DNA of 58,211 nucleotides from Polyangia bacterium (GCA_050287845.1 JBNKCR010000006.1:1-58211), one strand, 5' to 3'. Counted from the stretch's first letter, positions 38,168 to 56,222 are shown. Notes: generated from the letters alone by a model not told the origin. Numbers and translations are program-made.

Positions 38168-38509
38168 TCATTGTAGGTCTAAATTCTCTTTTATTTCGAT
38201 CGCCAAGCAAAGAACTTCAAAATTCGAACGTGTATCTATCAATCGAAATTGTATTTCTGTAGCAGAAAGAACGAGAATTGTAACCTCAATATTACAATTA
38301 TCCCACTCAACAGGGCCTGATATTCTTGTGGGTTCCAGGCAACTCAGGACTAGATTTTTTTTGTGAAGATCCTGTTGACCTAAAACTATTTTCAAGGTTC
38401 TGTGAGAACTGGTCATCTCCCATAACTGAGCATGTGAACCCTTCCATTTTTTCAGAAATGTTTTAGATGATTTTAGAATTTTTTCGTAATATTGATTTAC
38501 GTTATCCAT
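38168..38509 (-). CDS. Candidate immunity protein (113 aa)
   Basis: Starts 13 bp after the RHS stop with AAGGA RBS; no signal peptide; very AT-rich (11/60 GC at 38461-38520). Confidence 0.7.
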   Translation of the reverse strand: MDNVNQYYEKILKSSKTFLKKWKGSHAQLWEMTSSHRTLKIVLGQQDLHKKNLVLSCLEPTRISGPVEWDNCNIEVTILVLSATEIQFRLIDTRSNFEVLCLAIEIKENLDLQ

Positions 38510-38522
38510 TATTTTTCTATCC

Positions 38523-41500
38523 TTAAAAGGGCGACTCAACCGCCTTGTTATTGCGATAAAAAGTAGTTTTCGCCAGAGCTGATGGGGTGTTTGCAATATA
38601 GTGCAGTTCAGCATGGGTTATATTGCCTTTAGTGAAACCACGCGCGCCAGCATTTACAGCTGCTGATGGGTCAGGTATTCCGTCAAGCGAAAAATGTATT
38701 CTGTCAGCACGTTTTACAGCGTCATGAAGAGCACGACCAAACCGATTTGTCACAGTTCTGCGAGTAATACCATCTTTAGCCCATGAAGGATATGCAGAGG
38801 CGCCCGTCTTTTTCGCTAAAGCCTTTAATCCTCCAATTGCCAGATCCTTTCCCAGGGCGATTTGCTTGTATTTTTTAGTAGAGGATGAAATTTTATTTTT
38901 TGATACTGTATGGATTTTGTGAGCATTCTTGTGATGCTTCTCAAACCCACTCTCATCCACAAAATTAACCGGATCATGCCCCACATACGTGTAAAGATTG
39001 CACTCCAAAGTGCTTCCAACACATTCCTCCGGGTTTGCCAGGAACCAGGGATCAGGTGTGACGAAGGCGCCTATGCCGGGAAGATAGTCCCTTGCCCCCA
39101 TGAGAACGAGGCCACTCTCCTCATCCGCTACCTGCCCGGTAAAACTGGCCACCAGCTCCATGCTCGACAGTGGTACCTGTTCCCGGTTATCCGTGTCACC
39201 AATATGTCCGTACGGCGTAAACCGCCACGACCCGATAACCGCACTTCCATCTTCCCCAACAACCCCTTCCACAGCGCCCACCTGATTGGTCAGCAAACTG
39301 TACACCCGCTCCCCGTTCACAATCAGCGCCAGACGTTTGCCGTCCACGCGAATGAGACTTTGACGCTCCTGACCATTATCTCTTGTTGTTGCTGTTGGAT
39401 AGGTGACCAGCGTATCCTCGCCGCCGGAGTCCCTCGAAATACGTCGCCCCAGTGCGGAATAGCCGAATGCCAGATGCTTGTCCGGCAGCTCGATTTTTCG
39501 AATGCGTCCCTGCGGATCGTAGTCAATATTGCGCAGATTACCGCATGACTTCACACGGCCGAAGCCATCCAGCTGGCAGCTGCCATCTGTGGGCAATGCT
39601 ACGGGCAGGTCTTCTCTGCTGAATTCGCCCCCTGGTATGTCGCCCAGTGTGATGGCATGACCGGCAGCGTCGTAGGTATTGCTGAACGTGTGATCGCCCC
39701 ATTGGGTCTTTGCCAGCTCCTTGCGGGGACTGTACGCAAAGCTCATGGTAAAATCGCCATCTCGGACGAATGTCAAACGACCATCGGCGCGGTGGGTGTA
39801 GCTGGTTTGTTGAACGCAGGTTTCAGAGGCGTCTTTGCAGATTTGTCCCCCCAGCAGCCAGCCTGTTGAAGTGTCGTACGCTGCGGTGTGAATCAGACCG
39901 TCATACGGTGTTGAAAATGACGTCACCTGATTTCTCGCATTGTAGGTCACATGGTCCATTAATGGCGCTGTGGTCTTCTCTGACGACCAGATGATGCCCG
40001 TCAAATCGCCCGAAGCGGCGCGCAAATGAGACAGTTCGTTGCCAAAGGGATCGGTATACGATAGTAGCAGGCCCCCTTGCGAATACACATACGACGCTTC
40101 ATAGGACCGCGGGGTTTCTACACCATCCAGCGTGCTCAGATGCCGGCGCAGGCGACCCTGTTTGTCGTAACTGAACTGCTCCTCGTACGTTCTGCCAAGT
40201 AAATTATCTGTGGCGACGGCCCGCACCATGCGACCGATTTGGCTCGCATCATCCTCAGCGGCGCCATCGTAATACCACTCGGATACCTCCACAGACTCTG
40301 TCGCTTCATCGCCTTTTCCACGAATCTGCTCCGCGCGAACGGGTCTGTCCAGCGTATCGTACTCAAACGCAATGCGCTCCCATGACGACAAATCCCTGTC
40401 GTGGCTCATTTGCTGAACCGTTCGTCCCCGCTCATCCCGCATCCACACGCGGCTGAGTCCGCCGGGAATACTTGTCCAGACCAGGTTGCCCGCGGAGTCG
40501 TGGCGCATGGGCCGCGGGGTTTGTTCCAGAGGCAGTCGAATCGACAGCAGATTGCCCAGTGCGTCGCGCGTAAAATTGAAAACGGCGTCCCGCTCATCGA
40601 TTATTGCATAGGTTTCGTTTGTACGGCCCACATAGGACCGGTGCTGAATCTGGCCATCGATGCTTTCCTGCCGGTCAACGCCCCATGTTTCATAGGTATA
40701 GGTGCTCTGGTGCAGGCCCGTTACATTTTGCTCCCGTGCAATGCGGCCCAGCGCATCGTAGCCCATACATCTGGCCACACCCGTTGCACACTCAATGATC
40801 CATGGCGCTGCAGGAAACACACCGGCGCTGAAATAGTCCGCAGGAAGCTGGTCTGTCTGGTAGGGAATTAAATCCGCCACCGGCGATCCCCGACGACCGT
40901 AAACCACGTGACGGTCAACCCGGGTTTGTCCCGCCGCGTTATCGCCGGCAACGCCAATCGGTACGCCATCGGCCCAGAAGGCCAGCAGCTTCTGACTTTC
41001 GAGTGTATCGGTGGTGACTTCTCTGATGAGCTGCAGCTGCACGCCGGAAGCGTCGGCTTTGCGATAGGCGATACGTGTCTGATTGCCTTCCGAACTGGTC
41101 AAAAGGACAGGGCGCTGCAGGGAATCGTAAGCAATGGTTTGAGTTTCGCCCTGAGGCGTTGTGATTTGTGTGGCACTGAGGTACCCCGGCGAATAGTCTA
41201 TTTGTGTGGTATGGCCGAGATCGTTGCGCTCAGCAGTGAGTCGCACGCCGGTATCGTCGTATACCAACTGTTGCATCACGCCGATGTCGTCTTGCTGCAG
41301 CAAAATATTTTTGTATGCGTCATAGGCATAACTCACGCGATGGCGACGTTCCGCGGGCAGCTCTGACTGCAGTTGTTCCGGTATATCCCGAGTGTCGGTG
41401 AAAACTGTCTCAGTGACACTGGCGGGGTACGGCATAGGGGTTTCGTAGCTGTATTCAGTATGGCCAAGGGTCTGCCCGGTGTCATCGGTCAGCATCTTCT

Positions 41501-55021: not shown

Positions 55022-55022
55022 A

Positions 55023-56222
55023 TTATACCTCATTGGCGGTACCACTCTGGCAGTACCACTGGGTGGATTGGGCCGCGCAACCGAATTTCGCTTCTTTCCA
55101 TTGACTTTCGATTTGTAGCCATTGGTCGGTCAGTGTGGCGCCCGGACTGTCAGTGGCTGCTGTAATCGCACCAAAACCACTGCCTCCGCCGAGTTCAACA
55201 CTCAAGTTATAGATGACGGTCATCTGAAACGCTGTGGATTCAAGGCGCTCAATAATTTTTGTTCGCTTTTCCGCATAGTCGGCCATGCCTGTGGCCTGTT
55301 GTTTGGCCATGATTTCATTCACCAGAGTCTGCACTTTGCCCATGCTTCCTTCAGGTTCGCGGATTTCCAGATAGTGGCCAGTCATATCTGAGATATAGTT
55401 GTACAGTTCATTAACATTTGCGGTGTACATGTAGATAGGTACGCCAATGGACTCATCTTCCAACCATTCAACAAGTGGACTTTCACCTACTGCTGAACCA
55501 AATGAACCCTCAATGATGTTTTTGATTTCTTCCAGATACGTGAGTCCTGTTTGCAGTTCCAGACCAATCAACTGGTAGTCTCTTTCCATTTTTGAAGCCA
55601 CAGATACGTATCCACGGACTTTCCCCTGCATATTGGTCATTCCATTGGTAAACACGCTTTCAATGCCGGTTTGAGTTTCCTCCGGCGCTGGATATCCATA
55701 AAAAAGATCCTTTATACGCTGCCTCAGAAACGAGCTGCCGAATTGATTGAGTGCGCCCGTTGATTCGGATGATTCTTCACAGCCTTTCAGTTTTTCAAGC
55801 AGTTTAACCATTCGTGATGCCGCATAGGCGTATTTTAGCTCTTCAGTATCACCCAGTGTCCGCTGTGATTCATAAACCTGCATTCGGTTTTCCATGAACT
55901 GACCAAGATTGGTTTTGGCCAGCAACGAATAATGACATTTCAGACTGTGCGCACCAGCTCTACCTGAAAGGCCAAAGTACGCTGCGCCAAGAAAATATTT
56001 CTGGTAGGGTTTAAGGTCCGTCACAATGGGCTCAATCTGGTCGATTACGGTCTGATATTCGCCCATCGCAATCCGGGTGTTTAAATACGCGGCACACGTC
56101 ACATCATCGCTCAAACTATCCGCACACGTACCACCTGGCGCCGCATACGAATCGGCAGTGCGCGTCAACATACAAATAGTAAAACACATTAATAAAACGG
56201 TTCTCAAAAAATATTTCTTCAT
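55023..56222 (-). CDS. Secreted alpha-helical hypothetical protein with TPR-like N-terminus (399 aa)
   Basis: GGAG RBS; signal peptide MKKYFLRTVLLMCFTICMLTRTADSYA; GEYQTVI...QKYFLGAAYF is TPR-like. Confidence 0.8.
   Translation of the reverse strand: MKKYFLRTVLLMCFTICMLTRTADSYAAPGGTCADSLSDDVTCAAYLNTRIAMGEYQTVIDQIEPIVTDLKPYQKYFLGAAYFGLSGRAGAHSLKCHYSLLAKTNLGQFMENRMQVYESQRTLGDTEELKYAYAASRMVKLLEKLKGCEESSESTGALNQFGSSFLRQRIKDLFYGYPAPEETQTGIESVFTNGMTNMQGKVRGYVSVASKMERDYQLIGLELQTGLTYLEEIKNIIEGSFGSAVGESPLVEWLEDESIGVPIYMYTANVNELYNYISDMTGHYLEIREPEGSMGKVQTLVNEIMAKQQATGMADYAEKRTKIIERLESTAFQMTVIYNLSVELGGGSGFGAITAATDSPGATLTDQWLQIESQWKEAKFGCAAQSTQWYCQSGTANEV

Follow-up and report, generated by a model that had tools for sequence, protein, structure and literature searches.

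Toxin complex (Tc) toxins are giant syringes that carry no export signal, are released by lysis and act on animal cells, and in them the part that contacts TcA is the FG-GAP propeller with the TcdB middle/N region. An RHS cage, swappable C-terminal tips and immunity are shared by WapA-type, Sec-dependent YD toxins and the Rhs toxins of type VI secretion systems (T6SS). In the Tc complexes of Photorhabdus, Xenorhabdus and Yersinia (PDB 6H6E, 4O9Y and 9C4K), a TcA pentamer is combined with a TcB-TcC cocoon, and the characterised members all act on eukaryotic cells according to the available text of two overviews (PMC7861908; PMC11435725). The teneurin-like proteins (TLPs) of Myxococcota are, in the available text of their description (PMC13018210), predicted lipoproteins of the Sec/signal peptidase II pathway with polymorphic C-termini, an immunity gene downstream and no TcA; they are defined there by an FN-plug, an NHL propeller and a TIP domain, and stand alone. 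Here we analyse 58,211 nucleotides of DNA from a Polyangia bacterium (GCA_050287845.1, JBNKCR010000006.1:1-58211; hereafter the window), whose minus strand carries, at 38168-56222, eight genes (g1 to g8) that include a TcB/TcC-like RHS lipoprotein (g7) and a predicted TcA-like component (g3). In our judgement the cluster represents a Sec-exported form of Tc toxin that had not been described before. Its nearest known counterpart is the Tc (ABC) toxin complex; in lifestyle it comes closest to the teneurin-like RHS lipoproteins found in Myxococcota.

Like the Tc complexes, the cluster joins TcB-type parts (SpvB-like, FG-GAP and TcdB middle/N) and TcC-type parts (RHS repeats, core and variable tip), both in g7, and the predicted C-terminus of g3 superposes on the last channel helix and the TcB-binding domain of TcA. 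The length of g3 is about that of YenA2, one half of a split TcA, which is itself among the g3 matches. Unlike TcA, however, g3 has 1223 rather than about 2500 residues, matches no TcA in sequence and has a TPR-like N-terminal domain. Also unlike Tc complexes, every component carries a predicted Sec or lipoprotein signal, B and C are fused and predicted to be lipidated, five extra conserved exported proteins have no known family, an immunity-type open reading frame (ORF) follows the toxin, no lysis cassette is seen in the window, and the carriers are myxobacteria, not entomopathogens.

With TLPs, as far as the available text of their description goes (Nat Commun 2026, PMC13018210), g7 shares an RHS/YD shell around a polymorphic toxin, a predicted lipoprotein signal and an immunity gene or candidate directly downstream. 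Unlike them, it has a TcB-type FG-GAP propeller and a TcdB_midN region and is locked to g1-g6, and Pfam finds in g7 no NHL repeat, a TLP trait. With the Rhs toxins of T6SS (Tse15, PDB 8UY4; Rhs, 7Q97) it has in common the RHS cage, the region of the autoproteolytic core motif, swappable tips and cognate immunity, whereas its N-terminus consists of a lipoprotein signal and an SpvB/propeller module. In the literature searched we found no description of this cluster. The Tc survey PMC7861908 contains no mention of Myxococc, Sorangium, Deltaproteobacteria or signal peptide, and the 2024 review PMC11435725 none of signal peptide or sequence, myxo, immunity, antibacterial or secretion, in each case in the available text, supplements aside.

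Layout and conservation of the cluster

The eight co-oriented ORFs are separated by gaps of 1, 14, 5, 13, 38, 58 and 13 bp, and each starts with an ATG behind a GGAG- or AAGG-type sequence resembling a ribosome-binding site, just as the original prediction had described them. That prediction placed the whole system at 38168-56222; the eight genes do lie there, but the system reaches further, to a ninth gene at 35528-37831. A Kyte-Doolittle scan (19-residue window, score above 1.2) found an N-terminal hydrophobic segment in g1 to g7 and none in g8, and, with cleavage sites judged by eye, the signal peptides of g1 to g5 are cleavable, g6 keeps its segment as an anchor and g7 has a lipobox (VFGC). 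The claim that all products but the last bear an export signal is thereby upheld, with the amendment that g7 is a predicted lipoprotein. In addition to these signals, g1 to g7 have conserved cysteines, which are invariant in the family alignments. Pfam and NCBIfam scans of the eight products recognised a family for g6 and g7 only: g1-g5 and g8 matched nothing in either collection, and nor did the tip of g7, g8 or the C-terminus of g3 when scanned singly against Pfam. The same scans, together with the low GC content of g8 (0.35), confirmed that the operon ends in an SpvB/FG-GAP/RHS protein and a small low-GC ORF.

Related loci were collected by scanning with a six-sequence alignment of the g3 family, keeping one genome per species. 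This gave 13 loci, from 11 Sorangium species, Archangium minus Cbm 6 and a Vitiosangium. In all 13, homologues of g1, g2, g3, g4, g6 and g7 stand in the same order at 23-35% identity (tblastn with the window's proteins), with the g1 homologue directly upstream of g2/g3. g5 was found in 9 of the 13 at E ≤ 1e-3 and in 12 in a looser tblastn run, which gave no match in locus L012. Because this synteny is kept in every one of the related loci, the grouping goes beyond chance, and the cluster is a real, conserved gene set and order. A metagenome contig (L021) whose g3 relative is 24% identical retains the order g1-g2-g3-g4.

Within the family of Sorangium, a g3 relative is present in 2 of 121 sampled genomes, G041 and G500, the latter holding a divergent member spread over L027 (G500:C331) and L029 (G500:C459). 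There, the g3 relative is followed by relatives of g4 (hhalign probability 99.5%) and g5 (91.7%), a weak DsbA-like gene where the solute-binding-protein-like g6 would sit, and a convergent CHAT gene, with no RHS gene after the g3-g4-g5 stretch; on a separate contig, a g7-like RHS gene of 2146 aa lies directly upstream of a g1 relative. This permuted order indicates that the linkage of the RHS gene with g1-g5 outlives rearrangement. Co-occurrence with RHS genes in other genomes had been set beforehand as a test of the cluster, and the outcome was favourable, with a TcB/TcC-like RHS gene in all 13 loci and, in permuted order, in G500.

No g3 match was found in 40 relatives of the window's genome, and the absence of g3 from the three same-genus genomes marks the cluster as accessory in that genome. 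Across 401 genomes of its phylum, G000 among them, the window's own g3 was accompanied by a single weak match over 132 positions. With g3 alone as query no related loci were found, and a word-indexed homologue search returned only g3 itself.

The C-terminal domain of g3 and the RHS lipoprotein g7

The predicted TcA-like component, g3 (49824-53495, 1223 aa, predicted exported), has few relatives: when 1.84 billion representatives were searched exhaustively by HMMER with residues 850-1223, the family came to 27 proteins at E ≤ 1e-3. Most members are 1240-1350 aa long and align at their C-termini to the query, and the family is alignable over its full length, with signal peptides and invariant cysteines. 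An AlphaFold2 (AF2) model of residues 24-1223, built on a 25-sequence alignment with a predicted local distance difference test score (pLDDT) of 70.5, consists of an N-terminal helical domain, helices of 78-150 residues, a low-confidence loop and a confident C-terminal beta domain. Structure comparison of this model with VIA finds the N-terminal domain TPR-like (Z about 13), and over the whole model of about 1200 residues TPR and SMC helical matches dominate. Foldseek, run with the whole model on the PDB, listed 25 rows at E ≤ 1e-3, of which 20 were TcA chains (probability 0.87-1.00) and five were SMC-type coiled coils. The sole internal hydrophobic stretch of g3, at residues 599-633 (51597-51701), is Ala/Gly-rich with a Kyte-Doolittle peak of 1.27-1.42. 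It coincides with the low-confidence loop that joins helices 512-606 and 626-717, can be aligned throughout the family and, going by the model, may be a membrane-inserting tip.

The likeness to TcA is concentrated in residues 940-1223 (49827-50678), a helix followed by a beta-sandwich, for which AF2 gave a pLDDT of 87.9 and a predicted TM-score of 0.81. Foldseek returned 28 matches of this part at E ≤ 1e-3, of which 15 were TcA chains (probability 0.96-1.00, TM-score 0.28-0.40) and 13 were picornavirus VP1 jelly rolls (probability 0.30-0.80). A second look with VIA put TcA in all of the best 20 rows, with Z of 6.9-8.8. The 19 full-length TcA chains aligned over 202-219 residues at a root-mean-square deviation (rmsd) of 4.4-5.4 Å, and the 179-residue TcdA1 fragment 6l7i_A over 122 residues at 3.5 Å. 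Every TcA match by VIA falls on the C-terminal end of TcA (for example TcdA1 2237-2516), and the next fold after TcA is the Kex2 P-domain at Z 5.1. A wide VIA search of 48,161 representative chains, made independently of Foldseek, gave five chains at Z of at least 5, the top four of them TcA (8.1, 7.4, 7.0 and 6.9) and the fifth assigned to phage tail proteins (5.1). A lead from the ESM Atlas, clusters of TcA_TcB_BD at 0.79-0.82, is weak.

On the predicted model, g3 has the long channel helix and beta-sandwich TcB-binding domain of a TcA. The structural check of the 1223-aa protein that the original prediction called for therefore came out in its favour, the best PDB matches being TcA and nothing else matching as well. 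The TcA-like C-terminal motifs it had named survive in part: the predicted structure of residues 940-1223 resembles the channel end and TcB-binding domain of TcA, but no match appears at the level of sequence. In our reading, fold, domain position and genomic partner would agree with a TcA-like docking end, while membership of the TcA sequence family is not found. A complex prediction of g7 residues 395-800 with g3 940-1223 scored 0.00, to which we give no weight either way. Canonical TcA-type genes were seen in two of five Sorangium genomes, as frames of about 3000 aa with PF18276 matches of 1e-103 to 1e-122 (G041:C1:5526741-5527592, G041:C1:2511163-2512029 and G042:C1:10970335-10971195); all three frames are stop-free over 235-263 bases past the domain end.

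The genomic partner is g7 (38523-44747, 2074 aa), a predicted lipoprotein that reads as TcB-like and TcC-like parts fused into one RHS capsule, with a toxin tip at its C-terminus. Pfam matches TcdB_toxin_midN (7e-18, residues 738-880), FG-GAP_3 (5.5e-13) and RHS_repeat, and SpvB just below threshold (E 1.7e-4, 21.4 bits against a cut-off of 22). The FG-GAP beta-propeller and TcdB middle/N region take up residues about 400-880 (42108-43550), and the RHS-associated core (TIGR03696, Rhs_assc_core, 1.7e-15) residues 1844-1934 (38946-39218), the invariant columns of the alignment with homologues ending at G1934. These matches give g7 the domain order of a fused TcB and TcC, and it accordingly holds both the SpvB-type N-terminus, propeller and TcdB middle/N region of a B subunit and the RHS repeats, core and hypervariable C-terminal toxin of a C subunit. 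As a single sequence g7 found no match in the PDB, but a profile of g7 with seven homologues matched TcdB1 (6l7i_F) over the propeller/middle region at 8.8e-10 and, over the RHS core, both Rhs cages and teneurin-like proteins at 1e-20 to 1.5e-17. The TLP structures among these, 9pt5 (1e-20) and 9ifo (6e-19), are matched over the RHS core only (positions 1682-1980). The seven homologues are full-length (2153-2247 aa), with a lipobox in 7 of 7, an invariant core and tips that diverge wholly after it. Two full-length g7-like RHS genes in tandem, with different tips, stand in each of the Sorangium loci L015 (G041; 413-6874 and 7241-13819) and L019 (G043; 1263-7739 and 7911-14417), and in neither locus is there an ORF of at least 60 aa between the first and the second RHS gene.

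The reading we prefer, at a probability of roughly 45%, is that g7 docks by its propeller on the C-terminus of g3, and that g3 forms a small helical channel through which the cleaved tip passes into a neighbouring cell. The parts would be exported via Sec, g7 by the lipoprotein pathway, and assembled outside the cytoplasm. There g3 would oligomerise, its long helices and the hydrophobic stretch 599-633 making up a membrane-inserting channel, and the beta-propeller of g7 would dock on the predicted TcA-like domain. g7 would enclose its own C-terminal tip and cleave it after the RHS core, and the g3 channel would pass the cleaved tip into a neighbour, most likely another bacterium, while g8 would neutralise the tip in the cytoplasm of the producer. 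The remaining components (g1, g2, g4, g5 as a possible beta-helix, the SBP-like and anchored g6, and the ninth lipoprotein) might serve as shell, receptor-binding or assembly factors, with expression likely driven from two copies of one promoter-like motif and possibly by the adjacent extracytoplasmic function (ECF) sigma factor.

Another way to view the cluster is as a display apparatus with no injector, in which g7 would be a surface-displayed, contact-dependent RHS lipoprotein toxin of TLP type, g1-g6 and the ninth gene would supply export, folding or display factors, and g3 would tether the capsule by a TcB-binding-like domain and form a long coiled-coil stalk but no pore. The described TLPs do combine, in the available text (PMC13018210), Sec/signal peptidase II lipoprotein signals with polymorphic C-termini, downstream immunity and no TcA. 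Most of g3 is coiled coil, with SMC-type coiled coils among its structural matches, and an SBP-like g6, replaced in one relative by a weak DsbA-like gene, would suit such a role. However, g7 carries the TcB-type FG-GAP and TcdB_midN regions and no NHL repeat by Pfam, its strict linkage to five large conserved exported proteins exceeds the described needs of such toxins, and the conserved hydrophobic stretch of g3 sits between long helices. We consider this explanation unlikely, if well short of negligible.

Toxin tip, immunity candidate and target

The tip of g7 comprises residues 1935-2074 (38526-38945) and is a polymorphic toxin domain with no Pfam match. GC content, 0.56 in the body of g7, drops to 0.43 over the final 140 codons and stands at 0.35 in g8, and a tip of lower GC than the body is found in the window and in 7 of 7 g7 homologues. 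The Archangium homologue ends in a Ribonuclease of barnase type (5.9e-9), and a Barstar ORF (8.3e-22) comes next, with a 4-nt overlap. The window's own tip (residues 1930-2074) has 53-64% identity to those carried by five other large polymorphic toxins, two of whose source names are Nannocystales and Byssovorax, and these five are built on different scaffolds, namely DUF6531-RHS and HINT with SpvB. Directly after g7 comes g8 (38168-38509, 113 aa), which has an RBS-like AAGGA upstream and no hydrophobic segment and is predicted to be cytoplasmic. Its position, its size, a low GC content and the absence of a signal make it an immunity candidate, placed as Barstar is in Archangium. A variable tip with a downstream immunity gene had been part of the original prediction. 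The variability of the tips, the Archangium Ribonuclease/Barstar pair and the recurrence of the window's tip in five other toxins bear this out, but g8 has no relatives and is assigned by position only.

The same evidence bears on which cells would be attacked. A Tc-like machine of this kind could instead be directed against eukaryotes or prey, whether amoebae, nematodes, fungi or cells attacked in predation, with release by outer membrane vesicles or lysis and with immunity protecting the producer before export. The carriers are soil myxobacteria, a barnase-type tip requires a barstar regardless of target, and the characterised Tc toxins all act on eukaryotic cells in the available text of both overviews (PMC7861908; PMC11435725). 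Against this, the window's tip is common to DUF6531-RHS and HINT polymorphic toxins, two loci have tandem RHS copies with different tips, as in kin-discrimination loci, and there is no lysis cassette among the 39 window proteins scanned. DUF6531-RHS and HINT scaffolds are typical of interbacterial systems. On balance a eukaryotic or prey target seems improbable to us.

That g7 docks on g3 and sends its tip through a g3 channel has also to be weighed against a number of observations that tell against it. The sequence evidence for a TcA is wanting: Pfam TcA families match neither g3 nor its 26 relatives, PF18276 (TcA_TcB_BD) finds nothing in the window's genome at E ≤ 10, and when the g3 family was compared by hhalign with the C-termini of three canonical TcA proteins from Sorangium, the probability came to only 6.7%, over 39 columns at the extreme C-terminus. 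A PDB sequence search with g3 likewise gave 0 matches, and the g3-family profile met only coiled-coil noise there. The structural matches, at Z of 7-9 and TM-scores of 0.28-0.40, lie in the middling range of the tool, and models alone, all of them predicted, underlie them. In size g3 reaches half of TcA, and the roughly 390 residues from its hydrophobic stretch to the beta domain have no simple counterpart in the TcA channel. Unlike a TcA of about 2500 aa with its alpha-helical shell, this 1223-aa protein with a TPR-like N-terminus is matched by no Pfam family for a TcA receptor-binding or neuraminidase-like domain. Since canonical TcA genes exist elsewhere in two of the five Sorangium genomes, g7 might have another partner in those. 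For g8, neither a word search nor 401 genomes of the phylum of Sorangium yielded a relative. The gene for the ECF-type sigma factor has no tblastn match in the 13 related loci. An RNase tip needs an immunity gene whatever its target, so that the pairing is no proof of bacterial targeting, and the complex would have to cross the producer's outer membrane. Of the remodelled Tc-type injector put forward originally, what stands is the predicted docking end of g3, the co-occurrence with RHS genes and the tip/immunity pair in a relative; what does not is membership of the TcA family at the level of sequence.

Chance convergence of a helix and a jelly-roll-like sandwich on TcA, in a cluster with an unrelated envelope function, would accord with Z below 9, with VP1 jelly rolls making up 13 of 28 Foldseek matches at E ≤ 1e-3 and with the lack of an hhalign signal, but it is very improbable given that TcA fills the top 20 VIA rows and the top four of 48,161 chains, that the match is co-linear with the C-terminal end of both proteins, and that, as independent evidence, a TcB-like propeller protein, the sole known partner type of the domain, is encoded in the cluster in 14 genomes.

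If docking and channel formation by g7 and g3 are correct, then docking of the TcA/TcB type also occurs on a much smaller scale, in a form that escapes sequence searches, a Tc-type machine can be routed via Sec and the lipoprotein pathway, and Tc docking can be coupled to polymorphic toxin/immunity pairs, as in bacterial warfare systems. The fuller picture is a miniature Tc-type injector assembled outside the cytoplasm from Sec-exported parts, with a half-size TcA analogue that has no sequence similarity to TcA and with five new families, by which social bacteria would deliver immunity-matched, swappable toxins into bacterial neighbours. We put it forward tentatively and regard it as somewhat doubtful; if interbacterial use is true, no earlier Tc-like machine would be known to serve conflict between bacteria or kin discrimination. 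The cluster also lends function-linked context to five unannotated families (g1, g2, g4, g5 and the ninth gene), and g3 offers a compact translocator candidate of about 1200 aa for structural work. Several carriers are culturable, non-pathogenic myxobacteria, so the hypothesis is directly testable.

Other cluster genes, regulation and window context

g1 (55023-56222, 399 aa) is predicted to be exported, belongs to no known family and has conserved cysteines; relatives also occur in L021 and beside the G500 RHS gene, downstream of it. g2 (53510-55021, 503 aa), also predicted exported and of no known family, is syntenic in 13 of 13 loci and in L021, and hhalign finds no relation between g1 and g2. 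The Cys-rich g4 (48355-49818, 487 aa), predicted exported and of no known family, is syntenic in all 13 loci, in L021 and in G500. g5 (45861-48341, 826 aa) shares the predicted export and lack of a known family. Family profiles of g4 and g5 found no PDB match, and the ESM Atlas neighbours of g5 (DUF1565/Beta_helix/NosD at 0.89-0.90) offer a lead, and only that, towards a right-handed beta-helix. g6 (44806-45822, 338 aa) is solute-binding-protein-like (Pfam SBP_bac_1, 9.6e-7), has an N-terminal membrane anchor (hydrophobic residues 7-25) and is syntenic in all 13 loci.

The ninth gene (35528-37831, minus strand) encodes a 767-aa predicted lipoprotein with a conserved N-terminal domain and C-terminal Cys-rich tandem repeats, 63 cysteines in all, and no Pfam match. 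Its residues 170-430 match the Sorangium gene directly upstream of g1 (E 7e-21; found in 11 of 13 loci), which in turn matches the Archangium gene upstream of g1 (6e-79). By these matches the ninth gene is a further member of the cluster, situated in the window at the end opposite to that in Sorangium and Archangium. A 26-nt motif, TGCAAC-N-TTTGCCA-N9-CGT, which may be an ECF-type -35/-10 promoter pair, has only two matches in the whole 7.17 Mb genome, both of them in the window, where 0.19 would be expected. The copy at 56267-56292 (minus strand) ends 45 nt ahead of the g1 start codon, an ATG, that at 38046-38071 (minus strand) lies 215 nt upstream of the ninth gene, and the two look like a dedicated promoter pair. 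Divergent from g1, at 56497-57168 on the plus strand, is a gene for an ECF-type sigma factor (Pfam Sigma70_r2 6e-15, Sigma70_r4_2 2.6e-11), possibly the regulator of the cluster. A general promoter scan found 14 sites where 19.3 were expected, and terminator-like sites were mostly intragenic.

Among the 39 window proteins scanned, across the 58 kb, there was no VgrG, PAAR, DUF6531, T6SS, two-partner secretion or lysis gene, in agreement with the absences that had been noted beforehand for VgrG, PAAR, holin/endolysin and two-partner secretion. Other known systems were rejected on the same scan: a T6SS Rhs effector, since g7 has no PAAR, VgrG or DUF6531 and the window no T6SS gene; contact-dependent inhibition or two-partner secretion, for lack of any such family; and release by a lysis cassette, for the same reason. 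Elsewhere the window encodes housekeeping functions, a large Ser/Thr kinase, a caspase-like protease and a Roadblock/small-GTPase pair. This pair, the Cys-rich repeats of the ninth gene and the fact that the cluster's relatives are all myxobacterial are indirectly in keeping with an origin in Myxococcota. The stretch from the housekeeping genes to the cluster, at 30602-35046 on the plus strand, holds three genes, one each for a caspase-domain protein (Peptidase_C14), an FGE-sulfatase-domain protein and a strictosidine-synthase/SGL-like protein. At 12640-13722 (plus strand) a Roadblock/LC7 gene is followed by a gene for a small Arf/Ras-like GTPase, a pair that is presumably MglB/MglA-like, and at 22838-27064 (plus strand) a single gene encodes a 1408-aa fusion of a Ser/Thr protein kinase, an AAA ATPase and a MalT-like TPR region.

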